Notes under the pieces: generated by a model
Databases searched by the model: none
What the model saw: only the letters and a program-made list of their open reading frames with translations
Told to the model about the DNA's origin: nothing
Source: a virus
IMG/VR virus record: IMGVR_UViG_3300010403_000001
Coordinates: 15,712-79,711 of that record
Reading direction: 5' to 3' (one strand)
Length of the DNA: 64,000 nucleotides
Part shown: positions 1 to 56,128 of the stretch, in pieces
Numbering within the stretch: the first letter of the stretch is position 1
Layout: every line of letters begins with the position of its first letter
Translations under genes and position numbers: made by a program

Positions 1-745
1 CATTGTAATCGAGAAGCTCACCTTCTTTGAATACTGGAAGTTCTTGTGGTGGTTCATCTACTGACGTTGGTTGATGTAATTTTTTTTTATCCGAAAATTG
101 GATCAGGTCATCCAGTATCACCGTAAATTCACCAATGGTCTTACCCTTCATACCACGGAACGGCCAAACCTTATTGCTGCGGAGTAACTTTACCTTCTGG
201 GCTAAATTACTTGCGGCGAGGGTGCCATATGGTGGAACCAAGGCTTTGAATCGTTTACCTCTTTCAAGCGGCGATGTTAGACCGGGTGGAAGCGCAAGAA
301 ATCCTGCCCTGGAAATATCGTGGTATTTAGTCACAGGTGCATGGTGTAACCATTTCGCAGTCCTGAATGCGATCTTAGCACCTCGATTAGGATTGTTGGC
401 GAACTCAATCAGGTCATCCAATATGGCGATCAATTCTTTCTCGAACACCCTGGCACGAACGGTCTTTTCACCTTTTTCTTTCTTAGCAACGATCCGGTGG
501 TTCCCGTCCTCCACGAAATATTTTCCACCAATTTTGTGAAGCATTGGTAAATCACGGCCGGGCTTCTTCTTATATTCCTCTACGATATGCCGCTTTACCG
601 CATTCTGGTGTGAGACAATTTTACTAATGGGAATCTTCTGAACCTTGGACTTTACATCCTCTGGATATAGAGGGTTGTCCTCCCATTTGACCGTCTTGAA
701 CTGGATTAGATTATCCAGCAGATTAGTAATCTGGGTGATCGCCAT
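1..745 (-). CDS. Modular protein with ParB/sulfiredoxin-like domain and three L-D-x-L-I-[QE]-F motifs (runs off the window edge)
   Basis: Manual translation from ATG at 745: MAITQITNLLDNLIQFK...IPISKIVSHQ...KYFVEDGNHRIVA...ILDDLIEFA...ILDDLIQFS; open to position 1, so absent from the ORF track. Confidence 0.8.
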   Translation of the reverse strand, partial: MAITQITNLLDNLIQFKTVKWEDNPLYPEDVKSKVQKIPISKIVSHQNAVKRHIVEEYKKKPGRDLPMLHKIGGKYFVEDGNHRIVAKKEKGEKTVRARVFEKELIAILDDLIEFANNPNRGAKIAFRTAKWLHHAPVTKYHDISRAGFLALPPGLTSPLERGKRFKALVPPYGTLAASNLAQKVKLLRSNKVWPFRGMKGKTIGEFTVILDDLIQFSDKKKLHQPTSVDEPPQELPVFKEGELLDYN

Positions 746-746
746 A

Positions 747-1337
747 TCATATCTTCTTGCCTACTTTTTTCACCCATTTCTGAAGCCTTTTCCCGGACCT
801 CATCAGCAGCGATCGAGTAGCAAGGCTGCCGGTAGCAATGCCGGCTCCAGTCAGAGCTCCTCCACCAATCAATGCTGCGGCTTTAGGAAAACTAGATTTC
901 CCACGGCCGGTTAATTCATCGTACTCTTCTGGAGTAAGACGAATCTCGAAATTAATAATAGCATCCAGCTTGGCAGATAGCTGAACCAGTTTGGCATCAG
1001 AGCTCAATGACTTTCCCGCCAATCCCTTACCTATTCCTTTCACATGTCTCCAGATACGAGGACCAATGGAACCGATATCCTTACCAGTTCTTATCGTTCC
1101 AGTACGAAGAGCACTAGCGATATCATATGATTTACGACCTTTGATTTGTCCCCATGCGGCTCCAGGAACTTGCTTCCATGGAACACCTCCTGCATGCACA
1201 CCCCTGGCATACAGGTATCCCGGGACCCCAACAGCTGCTCCCCCAATCGCTAGATTCCGCTTCTCGCGTCCGCTCAATAAGGGTTCACGATCCGGCTCGG
1301 GTTCGGGATATGCAATAGGATAAGAAGGTCTAGCCAT
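747..1337 (-). CDS. Basic protein with two Gly/Ala-rich helices separated by LSAKLDAIINF (putative virion cargo)
   Basis: Stop 1 nt from the next ATG; LAIGGAAVGVPG and AAALIGGGALTGAGIATG segments. Confidence 0.7.
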   Translation of the reverse strand: MARPSYPIAYPEPEPDREPLLSGREKRNLAIGGAAVGVPGYLYARGVHAGGVPWKQVPGAAWGQIKGRKSYDIASALRTGTIRTGKDIGSIGPRIWRHVKGIGKGLAGKSLSSDAKLVQLSAKLDAIINFEIRLTPEEYDELTGRGKSSFPKAAALIGGGALTGAGIATGSLATRSLLMRSGKRLQKWVKKVGKKI

Positions 1338-1370
1338 CAATTTTTGCCTAGAATGTCAACGGACCAACCC

Positions 1371-1844
1371 ATGTCGCCAATCAATAAAAAACTATTCCAG
1401 GATTCCTTGCGTCATGTGCGCAGGGAACTTAAAACAATGAAATTCGGAAAAAAGAAAATAATGGAGACCAAAGTCTCACGGACGCTCATGCCGAGTATCA
1501 TAAAGAAAGGTTACTTCACCGATGAGGGAGAGATCTTCGTCCCGATCCTTCAATCTAAAATGGGGGTGAGGGATATACTCCGGCATGAATATGGCCATGC
1601 TCTCTTGTTTCAGTATCCGAGCATCAAACAGAAAGAGGGCTTTGATCTCTTTGGATATAGCACAAATACAGATGATTACGCATCAGATTATGCCATGGTG
1701 AATCCGGAAGAAGATTTCTGTGAAACCTTTATGGTGTACATGAAGACAAAGGGAAAGTTCCCATGGAATGAAGGCTCTCCACGTCTGAAAAAGAAATGGC
1801 AGTTTATTACCGCACTGAAACGCGGTTTCGGTCCTTCCTTGTAG
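1371..1844 (+). CDS. Zinc metallopeptidase (gluzincin-like)
   Basis: HEYGH (HExxH) plus downstream YAMVNPEEDFCETF; ATG 1371 preferred to TTG 1344. Confidence 0.75.
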   Translation: MSPINKKLFQDSLRHVRRELKTMKFGKKKIMETKVSRTLMPSIIKKGYFTDEGEIFVPILQSKMGVRDILRHEYGHALLFQYPSIKQKEGFDLFGYSTNTDDYASDYAMVNPEEDFCETFMVYMKTKGKFPWNEGSPRLKKKWQFITALKRGFGPSL

Positions 1845-4800
1845 TAGCAGCTACAGCCGCACCGGCAGTTGCTGGAACTGCAGCTAATCCAGTAGTTACC
1901 TTCTGATAGTTTTTGACCGGATTTCCTTTATATGCAATCAAGCGTCTGAAATAATTTGAATGCAGCGGTTCCTTGGTGGCCTCACGCAATGCTTCTCTTT
2001 CATTATATCCCCTGAATCGTAAATCCTGGAGATGAGCACTGAGGACCTTTTGTCCCTTCTTGAGTTCTTTTACCACTTCAGGATTCTTTCTGCCGCGCCA
2101 TTCACTAACAGCTTCCTTATGCCAGGAATCCAATGCCGAAGCGGGCGAATGCCTGAAAGCCGAATAATGCTCCAGGACGTGAGGATGTATACCTGATTTA
2201 GGACTTCCAACATCCCAGATCTTTGGGGATTTACCAATAAGCCATTTGACGGGAGCGGATTCAGGATGACGCAATGCCGAACCGGTAAGCTTCCCAGTAA
2301 TACCTTGGTTAAGAATATGTTGAGACGCTTCCAGATAATCAGCGACCTGCTTCCCATAGTTCGTTGGATTACCGGCTAATTTATCGATACGCGATCGAAG
2401 TCCGATCCTGGCAAATTTACCAGCTCCTCTATACAAAGGAATCCCAGCTGCAGCTACTGCTAAACCCGCAGCCACATTGTGTTTTCTCTTAGGTTCCTGG
2501 AATCGAATCTCTTCCAATCTGGAACTTAATTCTTCCTTAGAGATTTTACCCTGAGCAACCTTTTTAAAGAAATCCTTTTCCTTCGCCTCGCCTACTTCCT
2601 TTTCTATCTGGGCCGGAGTCTTCATCTTACCAGTCACAGGATTGAATTTACTGTGTTCGTACTTAGGTGGAGTTGTCAGAGGCTTATCACGCCACCTGGA
2701 CAATTCTTCTCTGGCACCATGGAAGAACCCGCCAACTTTACCCAGCCCTGGAACATCCTTAGCATATGATCCACGCTTAAAACCTTCCATGAGTTGCCCA
2801 ATACGGCTTTGAGGATGTGCTTGCTTGGCCCAGTTAATAACTCCTCTACCACCCTTGATTGTGGCTATCAGTCCAGCAGTAGTGAGGGCTCCGGCCACCC
2901 ATGGCTTTTCCCATTCGTTCTTTCGTGGACGACCGCGTGGATCAATGTTGGGTAGACCCTGACGCTTGAGATTAACATCCCTGAGCAATCGATGTGTTCG
3001 GCCGGCATACTTTTTGACTTTCTGGGCCTGTCCGATAGTGCTGTAAGTTCTTCCGTACAGTTTCTTATGCGCCCATTCCTGCAGCCAATCTGGACCCAGG
3101 TCGTCTGGGTCATCTGGCCTGACATCGAATTTCACCAGTTTAATCCGTGAGAGAAATGCATGTTTGGCTAGCTTCTTAAGTCCGTATCCAGCTAGAATAG
3201 TACCGCCAATAACTTCCGGAGCGAGCTCAACTCGTTTACCTCGCCAACTTCGTTCACCGAATTGATCTCTTGTAGTTTTGCCATACAGCCGAGCAGCCTT
3301 CTGGGTTGCTAAACCGATACCAGCACCAGCCAAAGTAGATTTAATTAATTTGGATGGTTTTCTTGCTGCCAGGGCACCGATACCAGCTCCGATTAATGTC
3401 GTGTGCCCATACAATCGGTCGGCTCGATCGATATCTCGTTCATGAATCTGCTTCATGTATCGATCACGAGCCACTATTTGGCGCTGACTCTGGAATTGAG
3501 TTAATTGCGATTCAGGAAGTAAGCCCTTCTGTTCAGCTTCCATTTCTTCTCGCTTTCTACGTTTGTTCTTTCTATGAGTGTATATCTTCTCGTATATCAA
3601 TGGCAATGCAGCAACTCCACCGGCAACCGCCAGATCAGACTTAAGCCCAAACTGGATCAGTCTTTGCCTGGATGACATTTGTTGTTTCCTTCTTTTTTTC
3701 AGTTGTGCCAGAGTGAGTCCGACCAGGCCAGTCGCCGCACCTCCAACAAGACCGCCCACGGCGATTTTACGACCTATGCCGCTACCCTTAGGGGCAAACT
3801 TCTTAAAAAGAAGCTCACTGGCTGGATATGCTAATCCTCCTTCAATCGCTCCAATAGCAATGTCATGCGCTGTGTGATCCTGTGTTGTGCCAGCCAACTG
3901 AGCACGGACTTTATCCAGGGCACTGAACTGCACGTTTTGCCGACGGCCGTTATGCGGAGTAATGCCAATAGTTATGGTAGCGCGTTGCTCTCTGGGTTCT
4001 CTTGGTTTGGGTTGTCGAGGTTTATAGAGATTGAGGATCTCCCTGGCTTCATGCCGTTGATGCGCCCGTTTGTCGTAACGACCCAATGCATATCCACCAA
4101 CTGCACCACCAGCTAAAGTTCCGGCAGCGATCAATTTGAGTCTGCCGGCACGCCTGGCGCTCTCCTGCCCCAATCTTTCAGTCAGCTCACCAGTCTGCCT
4201 TTCGTAGGTTGATTTTGCAGCAGTAACCCCTTCTTCACGTCCGAGTGTGTGACCCTTTTTGAATGCTTCCCCATGCTTAGCTGCATGTTCTGCACCAAGC
4301 TTTTCGGCCTGAGCTTTTAATGCTTCTTCTCCAAGATGTTCCCTGGTTTTTGCTTGCTCCCGTAGAGTTTTTATCACTCCAAGGTTCTTTGTATGGGTTT
4401 CTTGTAACGCTCGAAGCGCCCTCATGTCCATCGGCTTAATATCCTGGACTTTGCTACCACCAGCAGCCCTGATAAATTTCGTCCATTTCTGTCGAGCTAT
4501 TTGAAATGTGGAAAATGGTTTAGCCTTTTTCCCAGCGAGTTTTTCGCTCTCAAGCCAGGTTCCAGGAATAGCTGTGGTGGATTTCGACACACCTGTTTTC
4601 CCAGCCTGTCTGAAAACTTCCAAAGCTTCTTGCGCTTCACGCGGAATTGGAAACTTGGCAAACTGGATCTCTTTTAAGCGTGATTTCATCTGCTGTGTTC
4701 GGCTGCGTTTGCGAGCTGCATGAATAGCCAAAGCGCCGCCGGCCAGTACTCCAGCGGCCCCGATACCAATCCCGAGTTTCCCAAGATGAGGGAAACCGGT

Positions 4801-6054
4801 TGCAGCTTCTGCTATCGGAGTTGTGAAAATCTTTCGTTCTTTCAAAATCTTCTGCTTAACCCCACTAAGTCCTGCAAACTTGCTGCGCTCGTACGTTGTA
4901 TCCATGTGCCGCTTCAATTTCCGGATACGTCCAGGCGTAATTGGTTTGGTGGTTCTGCTGCCTTTTTGTAAAATATCCTGAATGCTGCTGACGCTAACCT
5001 CAGATAGCGGTGTGCCGCCATATTCATATGGTTTATCAGTGATTAATCCCATAGCTCCACGAGCCTGGGTTTTAATGTCTTCCGGACTTTTCCGAATCAG
5101 GAAATGCTGATGGATTTGTTTTTGGACTTCATGCTCTTCCTCTGGAGAGGCAGCAGATTTGAGTTGCTTATGTAATTTAGAAAGTTTGGATTGCCAATCT
5201 CCCTGGTGTTCTTCAGCTATTTGGGTCATTCCTCTTGTGGCGATCCGGCTTAAACGTTCACCGGCATGAGTCCTGGCGGCCGTGGATGCCTCTTGTCGTT
5301 GTTTGGCGAGGCCCGATAGCCGCTTCTTGTATTCAACCATCCGTTCAGGATGAGCTCTGGCAGATTCAAGGCTGGCATTTTTGGCTCTGATTATAGCCAG
5401 GCTTTCCCTTGCTTCCCCTGCCATGTAATCACGATGTAGCTTCATCTGACCCTGAATATGCTGCACTGTCTTTGAGCGTAATTCTCTGGGTCCAACCCTT
5501 TCTCCAGCATATTGCTCCTGAACTTCTTGCCTATGTCTCCCCCACACTTCACTTGTGGGAATTTTCTCTATCTCCGATTGGGCTCGAACGTACTTCTTCC
5601 AATTCATCCGCTGCCGCTCGTAGACAGGAACGTCTTTAAATGTCTCGCCGGGCTTTATATCGGCTTCTTTAACCGTAGCCCACTGTTTACCCTTGGGGGC
5701 GGAATATGGTTGAGCTTGCCCAGCAGCGAGAGGCCTTAACGCCTTAAGACGGGTCGCAGGTTTACCGAGTGGTTCTCCAGCTACCGGTTCCTTGAACCCA
5801 CCTTCTACCTTCTGCCATCGGACAGGACGCCCAATGGTGTAGACCTGTTCAGGGTCCATCTTTTGGGATACTGCTTCTTTAATCTTTCGACCGCTTACTG
5901 AAATGTTGTATTTGCTTTCCGGGGCATAAGCTGTGTGGCGTTCGCCGGCAGCGAATTTGATTTCGACGTTCAGCTTCCTGGCCAATCGCTTCAAAGCTGC
6001 AAGCGGGCGCACTTTACCTTCTGCGCGAGGCACTGATTCTGTGGTGTTGAACAC
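1807..6054 (-). CDS. 1415-aa basic modular protein, putative polyprotein/internal virion protein
   Basis: Long ORF; repeated Gly/Ala hydrophobic helices followed by K/R clusters and (M/L)xSR..IxF motifs; lies downstream of the portal. Confidence 0.75.
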   Translation of the reverse strand: MFNTTESVPRAEGKVRPLAALKRLARKLNVEIKFAAGERHTAYAPESKYNISVSGRKIKEAVSQKMDPEQVYTIGRPVRWQKVEGGFKEPVAGEPLGKPATRLKALRPLAAGQAQPYSAPKGKQWATVKEADIKPGETFKDVPVYERQRMNWKKYVRAQSEIEKIPTSEVWGRHRQEVQEQYAGERVGPRELRSKTVQHIQGQMKLHRDYMAGEARESLAIIRAKNASLESARAHPERMVEYKKRLSGLAKQRQEASTAARTHAGERLSRIATRGMTQIAEEHQGDWQSKLSKLHKQLKSAASPEEEHEVQKQIHQHFLIRKSPEDIKTQARGAMGLITDKPYEYGGTPLSEVSVSSIQDILQKGSRTTKPITPGRIRKLKRHMDTTYERSKFAGLSGVKQKILKERKIFTTPIAEAATGFPHLGKLGIGIGAAGVLAGGALAIHAARKRSRTQQMKSRLKEIQFAKFPIPREAQEALEVFRQAGKTGVSKSTTAIPGTWLESEKLAGKKAKPFSTFQIARQKWTKFIRAAGGSKVQDIKPMDMRALRALQETHTKNLGVIKTLREQAKTREHLGEEALKAQAEKLGAEHAAKHGEAFKKGHTLGREEGVTAAKSTYERQTGELTERLGQESARRAGRLKLIAAGTLAGGAVGGYALGRYDKRAHQRHEAREILNLYKPRQPKPREPREQRATITIGITPHNGRRQNVQFSALDKVRAQLAGTTQDHTAHDIAIGAIEGGLAYPASELLFKKFAPKGSGIGRKIAVGGLVGGAATGLVGLTLAQLKKRRKQQMSSRQRLIQFGLKSDLAVAGGVAALPLIYEKIYTHRKNKRRKREEMEAEQKGLLPESQLTQFQSQRQIVARDRYMKQIHERDIDRADRLYGHTTLIGAGIGALAARKPSKLIKSTLAGAGIGLATQKAARLYGKTTRDQFGERSWRGKRVELAPEVIGGTILAGYGLKKLAKHAFLSRIKLVKFDVRPDDPDDLGPDWLQEWAHKKLYGRTYSTIGQAQKVKKYAGRTHRLLRDVNLKRQGLPNIDPRGRPRKNEWEKPWVAGALTTAGLIATIKGGRGVINWAKQAHPQSRIGQLMEGFKRGSYAKDVPGLGKVGGFFHGAREELSRWRDKPLTTPPKYEHSKFNPVTGKMKTPAQIEKEVGEAKEKDFFKKVAQGKISKEELSSRLEEIRFQEPKRKHNVAAGLAVAAAGIPLYRGAGKFARIGLRSRIDKLAGNPTNYGKQVADYLEASQHILNQGITGKLTGSALRHPESAPVKWLIGKSPKIWDVGSPKSGIHPHVLEHYSAFRHSPASALDSWHKEAVSEWRGRKNPEVVKELKKGQKVLSAHLQDLRFRGYNEREALREATKEPLHSNYFRRLIAYKGNPVKNYQKVTTGLAAVPATAGAAVAATTRKDRNRVSVR

Positions 6055-7363
6055 GCCTCACCTAGGCATGTCAATCTGCCACCAAAAATGAAAAATAACG
6101 GGATGTTCCCAAAACGAGGCTAAAAGAAAAAAATAGTATAAGAAAATCCTCGATTCAGAATGTCTGGCGATACTGTGTATTTTTAATGGAGTACACCAAT
6201 CGCTGGTCAGCAAACCAACGAGAGTCGCAGACTCCATTCTGCAAACATGAAAGATAAAATGAGAAAGATGAAAGGTAATAACAATAAAGAAAAGGGCGAA
6301 GGCCACAAAGCACGATTTGCTGTTGTGGGGACATTCACAACCGTGATAGATGGAGAGAAATCCGAATTCAATCTGAATTGGGATGTTACCCTTTCCATGG
6401 AAAACCTCGATTACGCCGTACGCGATATCGCGGGCAGCATTGCGCAAGTTGCCGGCAAGATCGCCAAGGATGGGATCAAGGGTGACGACGGCGTCAGGCA
6501 AAAGGTAGCGGTTAGCTAAACAACAAACCCCGCTGGCAGACCGGGTAATGTCTGCCAAACTTAAACCTGAAAACTGAAAGGAAAAAACCATGACTGAAAC
6601 AGCAAGGAAAAACAGAAGACTAAAACGAATCAAAACAACACCGTACCCAACGGAACATTTCGCAATTCGAGACTCGGCAGATCCCGATCCAACTCCAGCT
6701 CAGCAAATGATGGATCGAGACGACGATTATCAATATCGAAATGGCGCTTGGATCAACGATGTAAGTGACCGTTACGGAAGAACGTGTGACGAATTCTAAC
6801 CTGAAAGAAAAACATGGAAACTGAAACAAATAAGTATCACAAACAATTGAGCGATAAGAAATTACCGCTCACTGCAGAGGAGCTTCTTCATATCATGCGT
6901 CCAGAGGTAGAAGAGATTCTACAAAGGCATGGATGGACAGAACCTCCCAGCCAATCACATCGGGCAGTCAAAGCTATAACCGAATGGGAGAATCCGCTCG
7001 GGAAGGATATGGCAGTGCTCCTGGATTTCCTGAAAGTGCATCGCACAGTTTGGATACTGGAAGGGAAACCAATATGAACATACAGAACATAGAGGACATA
7101 ATAAAACAAGCATTCAAGATTGAACAGGATAAGAAGTTGAGGTACCCGGCCGGTACAATTATCGCTCATCAAAGCGATCGTATGGCTTACGAGCTACTTC
7201 GTTATGAAGGTGATGAAGCGGTGGTGAGTCACAATAATATTGAGAAACGGTTCCCGGCACAAGAGATCGTAAACATAAACACCGTGAAGGATATCGTTTG
7301 CGAGATCTATACCTGCGGAAGTTATGCCCCTGATAGGCACATCATGGTCAAACTATAGGTTAT

Positions 7364-7627
7364 ATGCCATCACTGGAAATGCACTGCCAGGACTGCGTAG
7401 AAAAGCTTGGCGAACCGTTCACATACGTCCATCAGTGGCTGGATCAGCTCTGGCCAGTCCTTGGACCGCAACATCGTGCCGTTCGGCACAATGATACAGG
7501 CGTAGATTACATCCGGCTAAAATGGGGCGACAGGGCAGCCCAGGCGGCCGTGTTACACATCAAACTAGACGAGGATTTCGTCTACCAAAACGGTATTTGG
7601 GTTAGGGCCAAAATGGACGCATTTTGA
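7364..7627 (+). CDS. His-rich small protein (DUF6915-like)
   Basis: HCQDC..VHQWLD..HRAVRH..A.LHI..D pattern. Confidence 0.5.
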   Translation: MPSLEMHCQDCVEKLGEPFTYVHQWLDQLWPVLGPQHRAVRHNDTGVDYIRLKWGDRAAQAAVLHIKLDEDFVYQNGIWVRAKMDAF

Positions 7628-7640
7628 TCATACCCTTACC

Positions 7641-7694
7641 TAGCGTAGAGGGTCCGGAAAAGGGTTAATATTACCCCTTTTCCGGACTACGCTA
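7641..7694. repeat. Long palindrome, copy 1 (GTCCGGAAAAGGGTTAATATTACCCCTTTTCCGGAC)
   Basis: 36-bp inverted repeat 7652-7687 with one mismatch; outer TAGCGTAG/CTACGCTA arms. Confidence 0.9.
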
Positions 7695-9052
7695 AACCAA
7701 TAAAAACAACCACAAACAATATGGAAACAATCACAGAAGGATTCAAAAAATTCATGAAGGAGGTCTGGCCAGCAATAAGTGCAGAATCTCGACAATATAA
7801 GGTGTGCAGAAACGTGTTTTTTGCCAGTGTGCTATGGACATTGGGGACATTAAGCGAGTCGATTAAATCCGGTGAGAAACAACCAGTAGATGTATTACGG
7901 AAACAGCTCGAAGACTTTCTAAAACAATTAGACGCAGAGAAAGCGATCCGTGAAGACATACTCAAAGCATGGATGGGGGAATAATGGTAGAAATCAAAAT
8001 CACCATTACCGAGGAGTCAGACGGCTGTATTCAAACTCACGTGAGTGCACATAGTATCGGCACACTCAGGGAAAGCATGATGGGGCAGGCAATGGCTAGA
8101 ACCTGTGCTCATGTCGCTGAATGGATTGCGAAAAGAGTAGGTCAACCGGAGGGAGTTATCGTGGAGGACAAAATAGAAATCATTCCACTGGAGGACAAGA
8201 AATAAATGCCACTAATAATAGCAAAACCTAATCGTGGCCGCAGGGATATAATGATTATCCTTGGGCCAGAAAATGTAGAGCGTATGCAGCAAAAAGATCC
8301 GTTCGAACTAATAGTTCCGCAATTGCCATTCGATGAACCAATTGGGACTATTAGAGTCAGTATTGCTACCGAGGATGAACTTAAAGAATTCGAACAGCTC
8401 GGTAAACAAGGCAAGACCGACGAGGCCATAGAGAAGGCTACTGCTGGATGGAAATTCCGGCCAGAATTAGGGGACCACGATCGTGGACCTGAAATTTTAT
8501 TCAGGAAAGACAAAAACCAACAACAATGAAAACAAAACTACCAAAAAGAATAAAAGTGAAGTTCACAGAAGAAGACCGGATCAGTGCGGGAAGATACACT
8601 GATTCAGCAAACTGTCTGATGGCCACCGCTCTAAAGCGCATGGGATATAATACTAACCGAAAGATTGGTGTATATCCAGGCATCGTCCATATCGGACCAG
8701 GCAGGTACAGGGGCGAGGTCTATGCCCACACAGTGAAACGAAACGATATGGACTCAAAGCCGTACTACGAGGAATCCGTAGTCGGCACAACCATCACACT
8801 GACTCGTGAACACGCCAGACGATAAGCTCAAGGATCGTATCGGTAAATGCCGGTGCGGTCATTCCGGGGATGCCTCGCCTAGTGATCATGTGGATCTGAC
8901 CACTCTGGGGTTCGTCCAGCGAGGTCATGGGCATTGCACCAAATGCACATGTAAACAATTCACGTGGGTGGGACTTATGGAGAAGTAAGGAGGTGATACC
9001 ACATGTTCGGAATACCCATCAATCCGACACATAGGTAATGCCGAGCTTAAGT

Positions 9053-9268
9053 TCAATCCTGAAAGCTCGGCACTTCATAAACCCGCTTGCTTCCATCAGG
9101 ATATGTAATCAATCCCTCACCATTGCTGCGGGTAAGGGTGGTCCAGGTCATTTGGACCAATGGATGCCAGTGGCGCTGTTCCCAGAAGAACTTCTGCCTG
9201 TCAGGCGAGAGGGTTTCGAGTTTGCTGAGGTTTTTAAGGTATTGCTCGGTGAACGAGACGATACTCAT
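9053..9268 (-). CDS. Small hypothetical protein coupled to the portal gene
   Basis: ATGA overlap with the portal stop. Confidence 0.6.
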   Translation of the reverse strand: MSIVSFTEQYLKNLSKLETLSPDRQKFFWEQRHWHPLVQMTWTTLTRSNGEGLITYPDGSKRVYEVPSFQD

Positions 9269-11100
9269 TTACGTGCTGGTTTCTTCTTAGATACGGATTT
9301 CGATTTTGCTCCGGACGGCCGGCTGCCGTTTCCTGGTGCTGCTGGTTTGGGATGTAGGGCTTTGATGATTCCGAGATCTGGTTCTGGGACCATTTGTTCG
9401 GCCATGGCTTCAGGGATTCCGAACACTTTCTTTAATGTATTCTTAGCGCTGTCTGGGTCAAGTTTACCATCACCGACAGCCTTCAAGATATCGACAAGTT
9501 GCTTCACGCCCTTGTCACCGATTGCTTCAATTGTCCCGGGTTTCGGTGGTGGCACTGGTCCTGTGACCATTGCAGCCTTCTGTGTGGTGATGTCCGGATA
9601 CAGCATTCTGGCGAATACCTCCACCGGTACGTCGGTCTCCGCTCCGATCTGAATTGCTTCATTGGCAGTGGTTGCATTGGAAAGGAACACCTCACGTGGG
9701 CTCTTGCCGTATTTCCCGGTTATGTCACTGACTGGAATAAGCCCGGCGCTTACGGCTGCGATATCGGCATCCATCTCATAACCCACATCGGTTTGGATGG
9801 ATAGACCGAAATGCCATTCGCATTTTCTCCAAAGAGGATGCGGAGGAAGGACACCCAGAGCAATGCCTTGAGCGATTACCTTTTGGCGGATACGGTTTAA
9901 CACCTTATGCTCAAGTAGCTGCTGCCAGTATTCGATCCTCCGCAAAGCTTGCTGAACTTCAATACGGGCAGTCACTCCACCCAGGGTTGCTAGATCCCAT
10001 AGGAACCCAAATGGTAAATCCAATGACACTGCCATTTTACGAATCAGGATTTGGACAAACTCCATGAATGCACCACTGGGACGAGCAGGCGGAGCAAGCA
10101 TGTTGAAGACTTCGCCTTCTGCCATCCTCATGATCTTTCCCCATTCGGCCGGTTGGGTTGGTGTTCCATCTGCAGTCTTGTCCTTCCAAGCAGTAGCACC
10201 TTGGTTAGCAAATGGATCTTTGATCCCAATCAGTGCGGCCCATTGACTCTGGGTTTTGCCGGCAATCTTTTCCGATTCAATCCATTCCCTGATGTCCCTT
10301 GCGTCATTTAGTAAGCGGAGTAGTTTGGTTCGTCCGCGATATTCATCAGGGCGTTCAGGATCATGAAGGTGGATAAATGAACCAAACTCAATCTCTTGAG
10401 GCTTCAAGTACTGATTCGTTCGAGTTCTTTGAAAAATTCTATAGAACTGAATTCGACCGGTTTCTGGATCGAGCCCTACGCCTCCCACGTAATTCTCCTG
10501 AACGAGCTGCTCTAACGGTGATCCTATGCGATCTGCTTCAACAGCTTGTACACAAAACTCGCCAGTTGGAGAAAGCTCAGGAGCAATTTCAATCCAGCCA
10601 TGATCCCCATCAATCAGGAAGCCCATAAATCCCATCTGGACCATCTTGAGCCATCGGCTGCGACCACTGAGATCGCAACGAACTGAACCATCGTCATTGG
10701 GTTCATCTCCGCACCATCCGTGATAGAATGAATCGTATGCGTCGTCTATTTGCTCATCTCCAGTAAGAGATCGTGAATGGATCTTACCGCATACATACAG
10801 GGCGATCCTGGCCATCATTCCGCCAATGAATTCGAACTTTACCAGATCCCTGGCATCCCACATCGCTTTGAGACGGTCGCGGTTACTGCGCCAGGTTTCA
10901 GCAGATGCCTGAGCGAATAAACCGCCACTACCGCTTCGGCGTTCAGGGTTATCGTTGTATCCGTATGAGAATTGATGCTCGATCGTTCGAGCTTTCATCC
11001 GGACCAGTTTCTGGACTGGATCAAAGAATCCAATGACCTTGTCCCAGGCAGTAAGGCGTTGATCTGGCCTTTTGCCGTCCTCTAATTTCTTCAGATCCAT
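9265..11100 (-). CDS. Phage portal protein, lambda gpB family
   Basis: ARDLV, VEADRI, GGV.LD..GR..FY, FIHLHDP.RP.EYRG motifs; follows a gpW-like gene. Confidence 0.9.
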   Translation of the reverse strand: MDLKKLEDGKRPDQRLTAWDKVIGFFDPVQKLVRMKARTIEHQFSYGYNDNPERRSGSGGLFAQASAETWRSNRDRLKAMWDARDLVKFEFIGGMMARIALYVCGKIHSRSLTGDEQIDDAYDSFYHGWCGDEPNDDGSVRCDLSGRSRWLKMVQMGFMGFLIDGDHGWIEIAPELSPTGEFCVQAVEADRIGSPLEQLVQENYVGGVGLDPETGRIQFYRIFQRTRTNQYLKPQEIEFGSFIHLHDPERPDEYRGRTKLLRLLNDARDIREWIESEKIAGKTQSQWAALIGIKDPFANQGATAWKDKTADGTPTQPAEWGKIMRMAEGEVFNMLAPPARPSGAFMEFVQILIRKMAVSLDLPFGFLWDLATLGGVTARIEVQQALRRIEYWQQLLEHKVLNRIRQKVIAQGIALGVLPPHPLWRKCEWHFGLSIQTDVGYEMDADIAAVSAGLIPVSDITGKYGKSPREVFLSNATTANEAIQIGAETDVPVEVFARMLYPDITTQKAAMVTGPVPPPKPGTIEAIGDKGVKQLVDILKAVGDGKLDPDSAKNTLKKVFGIPEAMAEQMVPEPDLGIIKALHPKPAAPGNGSRPSGAKSKSVSKKKPARK

Positions 11101-21613: not shown

Positions 21614-22922
21614 ATGAAGAAATTGCCAAATACAATAACAGTGACAATACAGGAAATAGACCGGCAGTGCGCTGGGCACTTCCAGTACGGATCAGGTTGC
21701 CTTATCGCAACAGCACTGAAGAGAATGGGGTATAATCACGATACTCCTATTTCAGTCTGCCTGGACTACGTCGAGATCGGCGGGATACGATATAATCCCA
21801 ACAAATCAATCGGGATACGTGCCCTGCATGCAATAAATGGTCGTGATCAGTCTAACATGCTAGCGGATGGAATCCACTACCGAGAGGGAGTGGTAGGAAA
21901 AGTCATTAAACTACAAAAGGAGGTGAAAGTATGAAGGTAACAATACCAGTAAAAAGAAAACACATCGATGGATGTCAAATGAGATCCGTTAATGATTGCG
22001 TTATGGCGCGTGCCATGACCGATGCATTACCGTTGGCAGCCGAGGTTACTGTTGGAGTATCAGCGGCCCATCTATGGGAGATGAATGGTCGGCTGGAAAC
22101 TATCCGCCTTCCAGAGGAAGTAAGTGCGTTTATCCACAGGATGGTCTTAACCGTTCCTGAAGGCAGGTACGCGATCGAGGAGCGTAGCTTCGAAGTCGAG
22201 ATTCCTGATCAGTTCTGCGCCAAAGAACCAGTCAGGATAGTCCAACCCAAACAGGAGGAAGAGCCAGTACCGGCTTAAAACATGAAAGTAACAATAAACG
22301 TGAGTAAGAAACATATCAGGGAAGGTGATCCACGATACAGTTCTTGCTGTATCGTTCAGAGGGCAATTAGGGATGCCATACCGTTGGCATTAGAAGTTGG
22401 TGTTTCAATAGACCACTACGCACTGAGATCTTTCGATGGCGTTTGGACCCGGCTCTATCTTCCAAGAGAGGTAGAGAAATTCATCTGGAGAACACTTGAT
22501 TGCCATCTTCCATCAAGATTGAGATGGCTTGTATTAAGTCCATTCTCGTTTGAACTGGATGTGCCTGATGAGTTCGTAGCCAAAGAACCAGTCAGGCCCG
22601 CCAAACAGGAGGAGGTGCTTCAATGTGTTACATCGTAGCATCAGGACCTGGTGGAGCTGGGTATGACTTCCCGGTAGGGAAAATCCCTTACAAGTTCGCA
22701 AAGGGTAACTGGATGCAAGTAAACAAAGGAACTTACAAGCTTAAATGCTTACATCCAGATGGGAGATCGGATACCTATCTAGTGGGACCAGGTCAGAGAA
22801 TAGTGGCTGACGAGGAGGCCACATTTGAGATCCTGGAGCGATATCCAGATGAGGTGCCTATGCCGCAACCTCAATCTTCTCCTCCGGAACCGAAATCAGT
22901 CCCAGCTGAATTGCCCGTATAA
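21614..22922 (+). other. Four small genes (21614-21934, 21931-22278, 22282-22638, 22623-22922); the first three are paralogs
   Basis: Shared CxxA/RA motif; 21931 and 22282 share the DNA GCCAAAGAACCAGTCAGG. Confidence 0.7.
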
Positions 22923-24699
22923 CCTGGAATTCCTCGCAATCGAGCAAGTGGTCGTCCTGATGCAGTTCTTTCCAGATCTGCTCCCAGCGACCAGTACGCT
23001 TGCTCTGAACGGCCACCTTCATCCGGCTAGTCATATGTCTCTGGTATTTATCAGAGACATCGATCGAGATATGCCAGATTGGTGGTTGATGGAACCTGAG
23101 GGAAGAAATTAGGTCCATGGCACCGTTGACCGAAAACTTAATGTACCGGACCCGGTCAAGTGTCCTGGACTCCCAAGCCGTTCCCAAATGTGGATCTCGG
23201 AGTTGCACTGTCGAGAAAATCCTCTCGATCCGAGTCCCATTTGGGAAACGGTGCCAGAAACTTTTTGTATCACTGCCCCAGATTCCACGCCAGCCGTGCT
23301 CCAGGATAAGCCGGCCGGTCTGGTTCGGTCTGTGAGCAAGGTCGACCAGGACATTCTCTCCGTCGATCTTGTTCTCCTTTTGCAGTTGTTCCAGATGTTC
23401 GACAGATTCGACCTTATCTGCGAATAGCAACCAGCTTTCGCCATTAGGTCGCTCTTTGGAAGGGGCCATCCAACGCCGTACTACGGCCCAGAAATGGTTT
23501 TCTTGAACGTCTATGGTCAAGATAGCCACGGAAGCCTCCGGCACGTCCTGGAGGCGATATGGCTCTGGCCTGATGTCCTCCTGATCGAACATCCTTTCTG
23601 AATCCCATGTCTCAGCGAGCCATGAATTGATGAAATTCTGGCGTCCAGACAGGATTCCCTTGGCCTTGATCCATTGAGCGGCAATTGCACCCAGTGAGGT
23701 CTTCCGCCCAAGGATCGAATAGAGGCTTGAGAGGTGATATCCATAATCACCAGCCTCTGCCAGAGTGTTGGTGGCATTCCAGACTCCAGCGTTTATTATG
23801 GATGGACGCTCGAAATCCTGGATCTCGCCGCCACACTCCTGGCAGCGGTAATATGCTTGCTGGGATACCTTATTTAAATCCCACTCCCCGTCAGTTTTAG
23901 CCTCGACGTCACTTTCCCTCCACCACCGTAGTCCACATAATCCGTGGGCTTCGGTTTTAACCCTAAACTTGAGCGTAATGCTCTTAGAACACCTCGGACA
24001 TGGAACCCAAAAATAACGTTGATCAGACTTCAGAAACGCAGGCCAAATCATCCGCTCCGCAGTCGTCGGAGTGGATGCTTTTACAACAAGCGGGAACGGA
24101 AACGTTTTTGTGCGTTCCTCGGCTAGATCCAAAGCAGCCGCTTCGTACTTTGACTGATCTCCGTATTTATCGCATTCGTCCATCACCAAGATTCCGCATG
24201 GAAATGAGGCTAAGTTTGCTGGACTGTTTGAACCGACGAATTTCAAAAACATCGTCAGAAAATGCTGCTCCATGAATGCGAACAGATGGCGATCGATCTC
24301 GTTCTTTGTAGTGCGGGGCAGTAGGCTCCGTGCATATTCACAGGCCTGAACAAATTTCATCCATCGGGCTTTACTGAAGGAATTAGCTAATTCCCGGTTT
24401 GGGAAAACCCACATCGTATCCTGGGCGTCCCGAACCAATCGGTAAAGCATACCAATGATGGTGAGAGTGGTTTTCGCGGACTGTGACGCGAAACAGAGGG
24501 TCAGACTCTTCGTCCGACGATCCCCGAAGCGTTCGAGGATCTCCCGACCATATGGAGTCATCTTTAGGTTTAGCCGGCCTCGTATGGCTCCGGTCGGGAC
24601 CTCTACATTCTTTTCAGCCCAGCTGCATACGGATTCCTTAGTCGGCGGCTTTAAGATCCGGAACAGGAAACTCCGGAATAGCGCTTGTGTGTCAGGCAT
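22858..24699 (-). CDS. Terminase large subunit, lambda gpA family
   Basis: TPYGREI, ASQSAKTT, ILVMDECDKY, STPT, SDQRYFWVPCPRC, YRCQECG, TIDVQ, DHLLDCE. Confidence 0.95.
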   Translation of the reverse strand: MPDTQALFRSFLFRILKPPTKESVCSWAEKNVEVPTGAIRGRLNLKMTPYGREILERFGDRRTKSLTLCFASQSAKTTLTIIGMLYRLVRDAQDTMWVFPNRELANSFSKARWMKFVQACEYARSLLPRTTKNEIDRHLFAFMEQHFLTMFLKFVGSNSPANLASFPCGILVMDECDKYGDQSKYEAAALDLAEERTKTFPFPLVVKASTPTTAERMIWPAFLKSDQRYFWVPCPRCSKSITLKFRVKTEAHGLCGLRWWRESDVEAKTDGEWDLNKVSQQAYYRCQECGGEIQDFERPSIINAGVWNATNTLAEAGDYGYHLSSLYSILGRKTSLGAIAAQWIKAKGILSGRQNFINSWLAETWDSERMFDQEDIRPEPYRLQDVPEASVAILTIDVQENHFWAVVRRWMAPSKERPNGESWLLFADKVESVEHLEQLQKENKIDGENVLVDLAHRPNQTGRLILEHGWRGIWGSDTKSFWHRFPNGTRIERIFSTVQLRDPHLGTAWESRTLDRVRYIKFSVNGAMDLISSLRFHQPPIWHISIDVSDKYQRHMTSRMKVAVQSKRTGRWEQIWKELHQDDHLLDCEEFQVIRAIQLGLISVPEEKIEVAA

Positions 24700-51757: not shown

Positions 51758-54700
51758 CTACGGTTGAATGTTGAAAATATTCCGAATGTCTTTCACCACA
51801 ATCTTGATTGTTGAGGTCACCGACTGTGCAACTATTTCGATTACCTGCTGAACAGATTCGAGACTGATTCGGATAATCGCCGGGAGCCTGGCTGCCAGGA
51901 ATCCTGAGAAATCCAGGGTGGATTCAAGTGTGATAGTAAACGCACTCGGGACAAATGCGGTAAAGTCTCCAATGAAAGAGATAACCCCTTCCAGCAATCG
52001 CTGTGTTGATTTAATGAGTAAACCCTCAAACCCGATAGATGCTGTGAGCATCTTACCAAATACCGATGACATCTGACCAACAAACGAGAGAGACCCCGTT
52101 AAAGCCAGGACCGATCTGCGCAGCAAAGTACCTGTCACTGATAGGATGCCTGCTAGTTCAACCGGTATACGTTTTACTGTGGCTCCTGCAAAGGATACCA
52201 CCGCCGCCATTGATTTACTTATATGTTTAGTGATCGCTCCCGAGAATCCCAACGTGCCGGTGAGCAGTCTTCCGAACACATTCCTGGTGGTGAGTGAACT
52301 AATGAATGAGATGGCAGCCGTGAGCACTCGCGGCAGTCTCTTCAGCATGGTTCCAACGAAACTCAGGGTAGAAGCGAGATGGTAGCTGATATTGCGACTT
52401 AATGTTCCGGAAAAATCCAGGCTGGCGTTTAATGATTGGAAGAAATGTCCGGCCGTTGCCATATCCAGAGCTCCAACGAAGCTCAGGATACTGTTGAGGT
52501 GATACGAGGTGTATTTTGAAATTGCACCGGCAAAGGTTACCGCCCCCGATAGAGCCTTTGCCGGGATCTTGGTCAGCGTGCCGATAAACGATACTGCTGC
52601 CGAGAAAGTCTTAGCGCATTGCTTAAGGAAAGCCCCAACAAATGATAGAGTGCCAGTCTTTGTGGTCGTGGTTCTTTTGGTTTGAGCCCCAATAAAGCTC
52701 AGCGTTGCTGCCAGTGTGGATCGTATCGATCGTATCAGCGTACCGACGTACGACACGCTGGCAGTTAACGCCTTGTTTGTGCTCTTGCTGATTAAACTTA
52801 TGAACGACAACGCTGCGGTCATCGAATGCAAGGTCCGCTTACTCATTGTGCCAGCAAAAGACAGTGTCCCGGTAAGGAGGCTGGCGAAGACCGAACCGGT
52901 GACAATCGATCCGATAAATGATAGAACGGCCGTCATTGTCCGTAGCGTGGATTTGGTTAATACGCCGGAGAATGAGGAACTGGCAGACATCCCGTGGGTC
53001 GAGGATTTGGTTTGCGCTCCAGTGAAGGGCAGGCTTCCAGCGAGAAACTTACCTGCTCGTTTCGTTATTGCCCCGACGAAAGACAGCGTGGCTACCAGAG
53101 TCGTGCGGCCGGCCTTGGATAGCGATCCAATGAACGACAATGTTCCGGTTTTGGTCGTACTGGTTCTTTTTGTGGCGGCCCCAATAAATGACAGTGTTCC
53201 GGTAGCAGAATGACCAATGATTTTGATGAACGAACCGATAAATGAAACCGTTGCACTCAGGTGGTACGACGTGCTTTTAACTATATTCCCGCTGAATGAG
53301 AGAGTGCCGTTTACAGCCTGGAAAAAGAGCTGGCCTACTTTTGTAGGCGTCAGATTCCCGATAAATGATAGCGTTGCGGCTAACGTTCGACTTGTTGTTT
53401 TTAACAATGAACCAACGAAAGATACAACGCCACTGAGGCTTTTTAATGTCTTTTTTATCAACACGGACGTTGAGAAATTGGATAGCGGCAAACCTGCACC
53501 ACTATTGTAGAGTGCAGTGATTTCTGCTGCAGTTGGTTTGTGCTTCCAGAATCCTACTTCATCAATAAGTCCGGTGAAGCCTGCAAAACCATCGCTCCTA
53601 CACCCTATCGCAAAGTTCACCGTAGTCTGCACCAATGATGCGGTCATGCTGCTGACGTAGGTTGTCGCGTCATTGATCCGCATCCGCATTTTCTGATCGG
53701 AGCTGTCGTACCACGCCACGATGTGAGATAATGTACCATTCGGTACTGTCGAGCCTACGGCTACAGCGTAGAGTGTCGGATCATTGACACCGAACACGAA
53801 TCCCGACACGTTGTGGTAATACAATCCGTAGTCGTGGTTAGACGAGCCACCCTCTTTGGCAATGATGTATCCAGAAGCTATAACCTGCTGATCCACACGT
53901 GCCCACACAGAAAAGAAGAAATCGCCTGTGACCTGCAATGAAGCGTTGCTGGCACAGAATACAGCTTGCGGCCCGCCCCCATCGACAATAAGCCCGTTGT
54001 TGATAACTCCCGACGCACTGGTTGGGTTGTTACCAGAAGCGGTAAGATTGTTTGCACCGTAGCTATCTACGCGATCACTGCTGGAAACGGTTTCATCCAG
54101 CTTCCAGTAACTTATCAGGTTGGTAGTGGTGGCATTGGCTATTTCAAGTCTAATAATTCCAGTAAACAATTTCCTTGCCGATTTAGTAAATGCTCCAACA
54201 AAGGATACTGCAGCAGTGCGGATCGTACTGGTACGTTTAATAAGATTGCCAACAAATGACAGAGCTACAGACAGAATAGTGAATGTTTTTTTGCTTTGTG
54301 TTCCAACAAATGATAAAGCTCCAGTAAGCAATTTGGTATTACCCCCAGGAGTGAATACTGTGGATAAATTCCCAATGAACGATAGAGCTGCAGTTAAAGC
54401 CTTTAGTGTTTGGCGAATAAAGGTGATCGGAATGGTATAAATGTAAAACGCAAGGTCATTACCCGACTCGGCAGTCCAGACACTACTAGAAAAATACGAT
54501 AAATTACCGCCATGAGTTGGGGAGGAGTTATCATACCAAACTTCTACGTAATTGCTGGCATCCCCTCCACTATACTCTACCGCTATACAATAGTCCCCAG
54601 GAACCATGGTGTATTGGTTCACTCCGGAGAACGTAAACGTTATTAAACTCGTAGAACCAGAGGGAAGCGTAGTAACATCGACGTTATCGGAAGTAGCAAG

Positions 54701-56128
54701 AGCAGAACCAGTAGGCTTTCCGGTAGTGCCAGAACTACCCGTGATCGCATATAATTTTGCAACCACATTTCCGGTAGGAGATCCTGCTCTATCTAAATAA
54801 AATTTACAACTTGCCAGGACACTGGACACGGCGGTGAACGATTGAGCAACGCTCGTAATACTGCCGGAATATACTTGGTATACCGTGTTGGCGTTAACTT
54901 CAGAATAACTATCTAACAAAGAAGTAGGATTAAATCCCAGAGATGATGACAACGATTGACGTAATACAATAACAATACTATTGACTTTATTTCCCAGTAA
55001 TGTGGTTCCAACTCTCCAACCAACGTAAAATCGTCTCCCAGTTAATGGGGTCCAAGCTTGAAGATTAGCGCTTGTCGCTCCTTCCTGATAGGCTGTGTCT
55101 CCAGAAGTCCAAGTAGTTCCTCCGTCGGTAGACTTAGTATAATAGATCTTGGTGGTTGTGCCCAGAACCTCTGATCCATCTCGTTTGCCGTTATAAGCTA
55201 CGTAGATATCATCAGTAACTGGATTGATAAATACCTGGGGATTGTAATTATCATCGATATTTGTTGTTATATTGGTCTTTGCTGTAATACCAGTAAGACT
55301 TCCAGCATTAACAGCAGTAACCACCCAGCATTGCATATCAGCCGTGGCAGTATCTCTTTCTGAACAAGAAACGAAAACCAAAGCACCGTCGCTATTGCGG
55401 ATCGATCCAGAGAATGGATATTGATAAGCCGTAAGATCAGTTCCAACCGCTGCGATTGTTTGCACGGTTGAGGATTCCACCTGCGCCGCAGCGCTGGAAT
55501 CCCACATTTTCATTGTCAGCGCAGTCGCACTGGAATCATGATAAATTGCCCAAATATCATTATTATCTCCTGTGCCGGTAGCTGGATATAGTATGGCGTG
55601 ATCTGGGTTTGCTTCCCAGAATGTCGCAGAAAGCGCAGCACTCCAATTCGAACCATCATCGGTAGATCTTCCAAAATATTGTTCGTTACTGGCATCGATG
55701 GCGGCGACGATGTATATGTAACCTGACCGTGAATGAGTCAGTGAGCAAAAACAGTTTACTCCAGCGACTGCCGATGTAAGACTCGCAACTCCAATTGCAG
55801 CACCGACAAATGTATTTCCGACCGGATCAAACCTTCTATATAAAATCTGATCGTTCGTGGAATCAAACCAACACAGATCAATTCGCTCTGTTGTAATTCC
55901 AGGAGTCCATGGGAGATACCATACGTCAAACGCGATATTGGTGGTCGCTGATGCGATTGTTACAGCTGCGCCCCAGGTAGCACCACCATCTGTTGTTCTT
56001 GAATAAACAAATGTGCCACCACTATCAATATAGAACCAATATCCTGAAGAGGCAGTATTAAACACCACGGACCTAATACCACGAGCCGTGGATGTGCTGA
56101 TTGAAGCATCAATGCTTACATCAGCCAT
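51758..56128 (-). CDS. Large virion adhesin/fibre: Asp-box propeller + LamG domain + 18-aa repeats
   Basis: RTTDGGATW/RSTDDGSNW/KSTDGGTTW; YWKLDE..GLIDEVGFW; LSF[IV]G repeats; SD GGAGG. Confidence 0.8.
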   Translation of the reverse strand: MADVSIDASISTSTARGIRSVVFNTASSGYWFYIDSGGTFVYSRTTDGGATWGAAVTIASATTNIAFDVWYLPWTPGITTERIDLCWFDSTNDQILYRRFDPVGNTFVGAAIGVASLTSAVAGVNCFCSLTHSRSGYIYIVAAIDASNEQYFGRSTDDGSNWSAALSATFWEANPDHAILYPATGTGDNNDIWAIYHDSSATALTMKMWDSSAAAQVESSTVQTIAAVGTDLTAYQYPFSGSIRNSDGALVFVSCSERDTATADMQCWVVTAVNAGSLTGITAKTNITTNIDDNYNPQVFINPVTDDIYVAYNGKRDGSEVLGTTTKIYYTKSTDGGTTWTSGDTAYQEGATSANLQAWTPLTGRRFYVGWRVGTTLLGNKVNSIVIVLRQSLSSSLGFNPTSLLDSYSEVNANTVYQVYSGSITSVAQSFTAVSSVLASCKFYLDRAGSPTGNVVAKLYAITGSSGTTGKPTGSALATSDNVDVTTLPSGSTSLITFTFSGVNQYTMVPGDYCIAVEYSGGDASNYVEVWYDNSSPTHGGNLSYFSSSVWTAESGNDLAFYIYTIPITFIRQTLKALTAALSFIGNLSTVFTPGGNTKLLTGALSFVGTQSKKTFTILSVALSFVGNLIKRTSTIRTAAVSFVGAFTKSARKLFTGIIRLEIANATTTNLISYWKLDETVSSSDRVDSYGANNLTASGNNPTSASGVINNGLIVDGGGPQAVFCASNASLQVTGDFFFSVWARVDQQVIASGYIIAKEGGSSNHDYGLYYHNVSGFVFGVNDPTLYAVAVGSTVPNGTLSHIVAWYDSSDQKMRMRINDATTYVSSMTASLVQTTVNFAIGCRSDGFAGFTGLIDEVGFWKHKPTAAEITALYNSGAGLPLSNFSTSVLIKKTLKSLSGVVSFVGSLLKTTSRTLAATLSFIGNLTPTKVGQLFFQAVNGTLSFSGNIVKSTSYHLSATVSFIGSFIKIIGHSATGTLSFIGAATKRTSTTKTGTLSFIGSLSKAGRTTLVATLSFVGAITKRAGKFLAGSLPFTGAQTKSSTHGMSASSSFSGVLTKSTLRTMTAVLSFIGSIVTGSVFASLLTGTLSFAGTMSKRTLHSMTAALSFISLISKSTNKALTASVSYVGTLIRSIRSTLAATLSFIGAQTKRTTTTKTGTLSFVGAFLKQCAKTFSAAVSFIGTLTKIPAKALSGAVTFAGAISKYTSYHLNSILSFVGALDMATAGHFFQSLNASLDFSGTLSRNISYHLASTLSFVGTMLKRLPRVLTAAISFISSLTTRNVFGRLLTGTLGFSGAITKHISKSMAAVVSFAGATVKRIPVELAGILSVTGTLLRRSVLALTGSLSFVGQMSSVFGKMLTASIGFEGLLIKSTQRLLEGVISFIGDFTAFVPSAFTITLESTLDFSGFLAARLPAIIRISLESVQQVIEIVAQSVTSTIKIVVKDIRNIFNIQP

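Follow-up and report, generated by a model that had tools for sequence, protein, structure and literature searches.

A Recurrent Phe-Ended Peptide at the Module Borders of Putative Cargo Polyproteins in an Uncultivated Tailed Phage

The Head Gene Block

In this study, we analyzed a window of 64,000 nucleotides, bases 15712-79711 of the single 79,711-bp IMG/VR virus record IMGVR_UViG_3300010403_000001 (L001), from a long-tailed, uncultivated, 80-kb phage. Between the portal gene and the gene of a 439-residue protease-scaffold protein lie six co-oriented genes (hereafter the head block), which carry about 17-18 copies of a peptide of 10 or 11 residues ending in Phe; some of these copies stand in open reading frames (ORFs) of 282, 205, and 82 residues just beyond the window edge. 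By our findings, this peptide marks the borders of exchangeable modules in proteins that may travel as cargo inside the virion. Gene calls are simple longest-ORF calls, and coordinates are collected in table 1.

The largest cargo gene encodes a protein of 1415 residues divided into about eight modules (residues 1-34, 35-465, 466-710, 711-802, 803-854, 855-976, 977-1185, and 1186-1415). Searches with these modules returned no Pfam or PHROG family and no recognized enzyme domain; Pfam gave nothing above cut-off for ten single modules, and an atlas search with module 977-1185 retrieved unnamed viral clusters only, with scores below 0.9. Many modules contain a Gly/Ala-rich hydrophobic stretch, often directly ahead of a Lys/Arg cluster and the motif. 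One further matrix match, ending at Phe1347, is doubtful because its Phe varies in homologs, and it is probably no junction.

The 653-aa protein is cut by the window edge. It consists of a leader, a ParB/Srx-like module, an unassigned module, a LigD-type 3'-phosphoesterase (3p4h, E 4e-13), and a small ATP-dependent ligase (4d05, E 1e-6; PF14743, E 1e-9; phrog_114, E 1e-23), the last two outside the window. The ParB/Srx-like module bears a D-G-N-H-R signature and scores 0.96 to ParB_N and sulfiredoxin clusters of the atlas; a PDB search with it gave nothing significant. Together, phosphoesterase, ligase, and ParB/Srx-like module may be a virion-borne kit for end healing and sealing; a Ku gene was not noticed. 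The 82-aa Cys-rich ORF, opening with a leader that ends in the motif, is a further small cargo candidate.

The Junction Peptide

Two forms of the peptide occur. The 10-mer, compiled from 60 copies in 14 related proteins, has the consensus [M/L/F]-S-[S/A]-[K/R]-L-[K/R]-[E/L]-I-[R/Q]-F, and the second form, one residue longer, reads L-S-x-K-L-D-x-[L/I/V]-I-x-F. A weight matrix built from the 60 copies (threshold at least 8 bits) found six matches in the phage proteome, all in the 1415-aa ORF except for one in the 282-aa ORF, against about 0.5 in shuffled proteomes. The 11-mer pattern L-[D/N]-x-hydrophobic-[I/L/V]-x-F had nine matches, eight of them in the head block, again against about 0.5 after shuffling. 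Outside the head block there was a single weak match, and in the complete relative G001 all five 11-mer matches fell within the head block. The strict matrix under-counts drifted copies and misses most junctions in distant prophages, where a drifted form ending in K-[E/Q]-F can be recognized by eye. The two forms can be regarded as equivalent because the ParB-like module follows an 11-mer leader in the 653-aa protein and a 10-mer in P0007-P0010, where it sits inside a giant protein; it begins at the same residue after the Phe in both settings. At the same border, before as well as after this module, 10-mer and 11-mer swap for each other.

A preliminary description of the window had listed 11 copies in three genes downstream of the portal, with [IVT]-x-F as the delimiting motif. 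All 11 are present (Phe codons at 5953, 4660, 3925, 3649, 3493, 3127, 2500, 948, 698, 401, and 95), and so is the very basic character of the cargo proteins (pI about 10); the confinement to head-region genes, which it had raised as a question, is borne out by the counts just given. The minimal motif fares differently: with 6.4 occurrences per 1000 residues in the 1415-aa ORF versus 7.6 in the whole proteome it is not enriched and is ruled out as the signal, and only the extended 10- or 11-mer exceeds chance. The three genes do belong to the head block, but the block has six, and the third encodes 653 residues, not 248. In relatives these genes directly adjoin the portal gene, whereas here a 3.2-kb antisense island intervenes.

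The motif copies are written in different codons, with a mean nucleotide identity of 47%; this rules out a DNA repeat and argues for a signal read at the protein level. In the family alignment, where mean column identity is 14%, the I-x-F columns are near-invariant.

Relatives and Module Shuffling

Relatives of the 1415-aa protein are 1100-3200 residues long and match it only piecewise (17-86% coverage). The pieces are re-ordered among them: in P0003, for instance, block 977-1185 precedes block 710-976. The 19 proteins compared have 670 internal homology-block ends, and for 33% of these a motif Phe is no more than 10 residues away; by chance 7.8% would be expected, and 1000 random trials reached at most 11.8%. 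The protein pairs are not independent, though the effect is large. Block ends peak 0-4 residues past the Phe. The shuffling of modules at motif boundaries, which the preliminary description had put forward for comparison among relatives, is thereby found both in the block ends and in the permuted order.

Residues 855-1185, searched against 1.84 billion representative proteins, gave 156 clusters, and 150 representative proteins of these contain 380 motif copies, versus 3 after shuffling; a single protein has as many as ten, and the copies are spaced by a median of 225 residues. Among the 380 copies, in which the Phe at position 0 is fixed by construction, Ile occupies position -2 in 88% and Glu position -3 in only 14%; Met is kept at the first motif position in a third. 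A Lys/Arg-rich stretch lies upstream. The Phe is most often followed by Ala (25%), with Asp, Gln, and Gly as other frequent residues, a linker-like composition that also includes Pro and acidic residues. A hydrophobic segment precedes 31% of copies compared with 13% of random positions, in line with the hydrophobic helix first noticed ahead of the motif.

The domain stock of the giant relatives includes SNF2 helicase (8 of 24), R2K ATP-grasp, histidine phosphatase (His_Phos_1), SET, and, in one relative, an LRAT/NlpC-like domain; one giant relative has the same phosphoesterase-ligase pair. The P0011 polyprotein contains H-E-x-x-H and papain-like modules, and most polyproteins are without a peptidase module. 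In five genomes, this one and G001-G004, the cargo genes lie between the portal gene and the protease/scaffold/capsid genes.

Leaders, Capsid-Like N-Terminus, and Head Protease

The peptide is also found near the start of the proteins. In five of the six cargo genes here, the first copy falls within residues 15-66 (the leaders end at 15, 16, 34, 48, and 66), and the small cargo genes of G001-G004 likewise open with a short leader ending in the motif. The 1415-aa protein has a further N-terminal feature. Its first 12 residues match those of the major capsid protein, with ten identities and two Asp/Glu swaps, and 11 of the 12 codons differ between the two genes. In this phage and in G001 the peptide is found exactly twice per genome, at the starts of polyprotein and capsid protein, and polyproteins that share no more than about 30% identity elsewhere begin with it as well. 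P0011 contains an internal copy beginning three residues past a junction Phe, the offset seen at a true N-terminus; this is as expected if a cut after the Phe exposes the capsid-like peptide.

Portal N-termini of this phage group show a motif-like stretch ending in Phe at residues ~41-52. It recalls the lambda portal gpB, whose N-terminus is trimmed by the lambda head protease.

A gene of 420-480 codons comes after the cargo genes in each of the five genomes, and then a small decoration-like gene and the capsid gene. By sequence, the 439-aa product of the first of these (L001 8442-9761, -) found nothing in Pfam, NCBIfam, or PDB profiles, and PF04586 (Pfam S78) was unmatched in the genome. Its residues 1-175 could be modeled at pLDDT 87 with 50 homologs (pLDDT was 43 with 5 sequences only). 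The best structural match of this model is T4 gp21 (5jbl_A; Z 11.4, rmsd 3.0 A, 132 of 165 residues); next come the assemblins of herpesviruses (Z 6-8). On the strength of the model, the N-terminal domain is assigned as a prohead protease with the T4 gp21 fold. His44, His72, and Ser123 are invariant in the 50 homologs. The remainder resembles a coiled coil, a layout known from protease-scaffold fusions.

Among 113 homologs, 77 have a hydrophobic-x-Phe element in the flexible N-terminus of the protease, compared with 17 once the sequences are shuffled, and an invariant G-L-F closes the domain. Both elements would fit self-processing at Phe, without proving it. Near the C-terminus of the protease-scaffold protein there is another motif-like site. 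When the protease domain was modeled together with a junction segment of 50 residues, the complex scored 0.00, which speaks neither for nor against their interaction.

Genome Setting and Neighboring Genes

The two ends of the record share about 124 bp, and the genome is listed in IMG/VR as 100% complete with direct terminal repeats. Searches of GenBank phages with the polyprotein and the capsid protein found no relative of either, and genome contigs searched with the capsid protein gave no match. Of 19 loci with relatives of the head protease, on the other hand, 18 belong to Verrucomicrobiota assemblies, Chthoniobacter among them, and some of these loci sit in contigs of 0.1-2 Mb; one further relative occurs on a 6.2-Mb contig of the cultured Opitutaceae strain TAV1. 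For this reason, Verrucomicrobia are the likely hosts.

The island between the portal and polyprotein genes (window 6247-8988, +) consists of small ORFs over 3.2 kb. It looks like an inserted accessory block because the two genes adjoin each other in G001-G003. A 191-aa ORF (6058-6633, -) that overlaps the antisense island is probably no gene. About 14 nt before the GTG start of the polyprotein there is a TTGACA element (window 6055-6080), kept in G001 (L022 ~7390-7418); an upstream "I-D-M-P" reading is the translation of this element.

The antisense ORF between two cargo genes, with its zinc-peptidase signature, has a counterpart in the same antisense place in G001 (L022 11650-12123, -) and is absent from G002 and G003. 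Its matches to a zinc metallohydrolase and to the spr1629-type antitoxin family are weak, and by its signature it is a candidate for an alternative protease or an accessory gene.

In the tail region, a 1456-aa ORF (window 51758-56128, -) without PHROG match has one chance-level motif match and probably encodes a fiber or central tail protein. Two neighboring 118-aa paralogs with alike N-termini in the tail block (L001 2209-2565 and 2590-2946, -) may be duplicated tail tube or Ig-like proteins.

Table 1. Head-Block Features and Landmark Genes (window positions unless L001, another locus, or genome is given)
Feature	Position	Strand	Remarks
1415-aa cargo polyprotein	1807..6054	-	GTG start; pI 10.3; several Gly/Ala-rich hydrophobic segments
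Capsid-like peptide, first 12 residues of 1415-aa protein	6019..6054	-	
Junction Phe34, end of N-terminal leader	5953..5985	-	Kept in P0002-P0006
Junction Phe465, canonical 10-mer	4660..4692	-	29 bits
Degenerate junction Phe710	3925..3957	-	Homology blocks break here; P0009 and P0010 canonical at this border
Junction Phe802	3649..3681	-	30 bits
Degenerate junction Phe854	3493..3525	-	Module border; homologs have canonical copy
Junction Phe976	3127..3159	-	17 bits
Junction Phe1185	2500..2532	-	26 bits
Motif-like match Phe1347	2014..2046	-	Matrix match; Phe not conserved in homologs; probably no junction
653-aa polyvalent protein	L001 14495-16456; first 248 residues = window 1..745	-	Cut by window edge
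Junction copies of 653-aa protein	698-730, 401-433, 95-127	-	
197-aa basic cargo protein	747..1340	-	11-mer copy 948-980 (Phe131); C-terminal hydrophobic segment
82-aa Cys-rich ORF	L001 10076-10324	-	C-C-x-x-C and C-C clusters; 15-residue leader ending in motif
Antisense 166-aa ORF	1344..1844	+	H-E-x-x-H zinc-peptidase signature; between two cargo genes
Portal, lambda family	9265..11100	-	Upstream anchor of head block
Portal motif-like stretches	~10945-11000; L023 2895-3020; L024 2525-2660		G002 scores above threshold
Large terminase	22858-24699		
Major capsid protein	genome 7044-8021		phrog_1005, E 1e-27
Tape measure	genome (L001) 1-1239		phrog_1686, E 6e-12; after tail genes

Discussion

What could a peptide that recurs at nearly every module border do for this phage? 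On balance, and with modest confidence, we infer packaging of the polyproteins as virion cargo, their cleavage at the junctions by the phage's own head protease, a scissile bond at the peptide, and ejection. The genes between the portal and the protease-scaffold protein would then have capsid cargo as their products, namely internal or ejection proteins similar in kind to the "polyvalent proteins" and made as precursors assembled from exchangeable modules. At each border, and at the end of each small-gene leader, the basic amphipathic peptide with its invariant Phe would serve for both recognition and cutting, and the cutter would be the prohead serine protease that forms the N-terminal domain of the 439-aa protein. 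The precursors would enter the procapsid via their leaders, and the 1415-aa protein might be loaded also through its copy of the capsid N-arm tip by a possible contact with the scaffold, which in other phages holds this tip. Once inside the procapsid, the precursors would be diced, at or beside the junction Phe, into pieces of ~50-430 residues. These pieces would be basic proteins with Gly/Ala-rich hydrophobic, membrane-like segments, together with enzymes (ParB/Srx-like, phosphoesterase-ligase), and would leave the capsid together with the DNA. The preliminary description had proposed a capsid-targeting or cleavage signal that releases proteins for ejection; this is sustained in part, namely by the confinement of the motif, the shuffled borders, the leaders, and a gp21-fold protease encoded by the phage.

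Several observations weigh against cleavage by the head protease. We know of no prohead protease of the gp21 fold that cuts after Phe. The capsid protein, which the preliminary description had named as a possible further bearer of the motif, has no canonical copy. Many distant family members keep only basic-x-x-Phe, and the repeated copies could be a relic of fused leader-bearing genes, in which case internal cutting is not required. His72 and Ser123 are only putative catalytic residues, chosen by invariance and approximate position. Moreover, the T4 protease recognizes L/I-x-E, and those of the phiKZ and SPN3US group cut after Glu.

The peptide might, alternatively, stay uncut and work as a docking element, an amphipathic helix tying modules to the inner capsid, the scaffold, or the DNA, with the proteins remaining full-length. 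Models for such a role are the encapsulin cargo-loading peptide and the N4 virion RNA polymerase, which stays full-length. The peptide is indeed basic and amphipathic, follows a Lys/Arg-rich stretch, and sits as an N-terminal tag on small cargo genes, and some known polyvalent proteins are packaged unprocessed (PMC5512222). Yet a single tag would be enough for loading, whereas here copies stand at nearly every border and survive module permutation; with linker-like residues after the Phe and a head protease encoded next door, we regard uncut docking as unlikely. More improbable, in our view, is cleavage of the junctions by another enzyme, be it the antisense H-E-x-x-H protein, embedded peptidases, or a host protease, possibly after ejection. 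The conserved antisense place of the H-E-x-x-H ORF in G001, the peptidase modules of P0011, and the LRAT/NlpC-like domain of one relative would suit such an enzyme; self-processing by metallopeptidases has been proposed by Iyer et al. (PMC5512222), and phage 80alpha uses the host protease Prp (PMC5744158). Against it, the H-E-x-x-H ORF is missing from G002 and G003, both of which bear the motif, and peptidase modules are missing from most polyproteins. A phage-encoded Prp is ruled out, since PF04327 matched nothing in this genome even when E values up to 1 were allowed. To our knowledge, Prp is not typical of Verrucomicrobia, which speaks against host Prp as the cutter.

Could the motif be a mere cassette border, a leader relic or a patch of exchange homology with no present role in loading or cutting? 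The Met at the first position in a third of copies, as if these were former start codons, and the shuffling of modules exactly at the motif could be taken this way. Nonetheless, Ile and Phe are near-invariant across 380 copies while the proteins share ~14% column identity, which argues for selection on the peptide itself, and the differing motif codons (47% identity) leave little DNA homology for recombination; we give this explanation a small chance only. That the 1415-aa protein is a tape measure or other tail protein with structural repeats is scarcely credible. Tape measures are long and basic and can bear hydrophobic Gly-rich segments; this phage, however, has its own tape-measure gene after the tail genes, and in five genomes the polyprotein lies in the head block. 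This gene order contradicts the tape-measure reading, which we reject.

Beyond cleavage of cargo polyproteins by the head protease, a broader scheme can be entertained, though it is doubtful: a two-part addressing of cargo used throughout the lineage, in which a copy of the capsid N-arm tip serves the giant precursor for entry with the scaffold, and a Phe-ended peptide, a leader on small cargo and a scissile joint in polyproteins, is read by a gp21-fold protease. If true, the products would include C-terminally anchored, membrane-inserting basic proteins as well as end-healing and sealing enzymes that accompany the DNA into the host. Any module placed between two junction peptides would then be loaded and released, in effect a natural plug-in system of protein delivery.

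Proteins delivered by the phage decide the first minutes of infection, through anti-defence, DNA protection, and membrane passage. How dozens of unrelated proteins are directed into the capsid is poorly known except for T4 and the giant phages. A single peptide that marks borders in at least 150 protein clusters makes polyvalent proteins parsable, and their modules can be cataloged from sequence. The capsid N-terminus repeated on the 1415-aa protein hints at a handle for loading, and the system as a whole points to an undescribed specificity of the gp21/HK97 protease fold. In Verrucomicrobia phages, the set of ParB/Srx-like module, phosphoesterase, and ligase may travel as virion cargo.

Comparison with Known Systems

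Two components of this model are already known, the class of polyvalent proteins and the cutting of internal proteins by a head protease at a recurring site. Polyvalent proteins are very large mosaics of many domains; their genes lie next to portal-terminase head genes, and packaging and injection have been predicted for them (Iyer et al. 2017; PMC5512222). The proteins described here conform to this class in having at least two unrelated domains (in the 653-aa protein), a setting among virion genes, and a mosaic order among relatives. They also draw on a common domain stock: DdrB-like ParB, SNF2 helicase, papain-like and zinc peptidases, and ligase/repair enzymes. They differ in that most modules of the 1415-aa protein are small, basic, and endowed with a hydrophobic segment, and belong to no enzyme family. 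No conserved junction peptide is described in that survey, whose text does not contain the word "linker"; the processing it proposes is done by the proteins' own metallopeptidase domains and not by a prohead protease (PMC5512222). A literature search, with most subscription journals outside its scope, found no paper on a conserved junction peptide in polyvalent proteins.

A functional parallel would be found in the T4 internal proteins. In T4, IPI-III and Alt carry capsid-targeting leaders that are removed by gp21, and phiKZ and SPN3US process head proteins at multiple sites (PMC9026906, PMC9958956, PMC5694885, PMC10052503). The likeness lies in the same protease fold, in leaders on unrelated proteins that end in the site, and in one motif recurring in head proteins, with the qualification that here the leader motif is only presumed to be the protease consensus. 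In contrast to L/I-x-E or x-x-E, the motif here spans 10-11 residues and ends in Phe; it joins many modules in single giant proteins that shuffle between phages, and the protease is fused to a scaffold-like coiled coil. The system may therefore work like that of T4 but, with an invariant Ile at -2 and Phe at 0 in place of L/I-x-E, is no member of that group by its site.

In Staphylococcus phage 80alpha, the host protease Prp cuts between F and A in a leader common to the capsid and scaffolding proteins (PMC5744158), a precedent for head-protein cleavage behind a Phe. There, as here, an N-terminal leader is common to non-homologous head proteins; Phe precedes the cut in 80alpha, and Ala often follows the Phe in our copies. 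The 80alpha leaders are nevertheless single and N-terminal, not polyprotein junctions, and Prp is a cysteine protease of Firmicutes hosts. Another analogy is offered by polymorphic toxins, whose short pre-toxin motifs (V-E-N-N of CdiA, D-P-x-G-L of Rhs) mark the border of cassette exchange and, in Rhs, are also cut. The toxins differ in being part of bacterial secretion systems; each protein has a single junction, and capsids are not involved.

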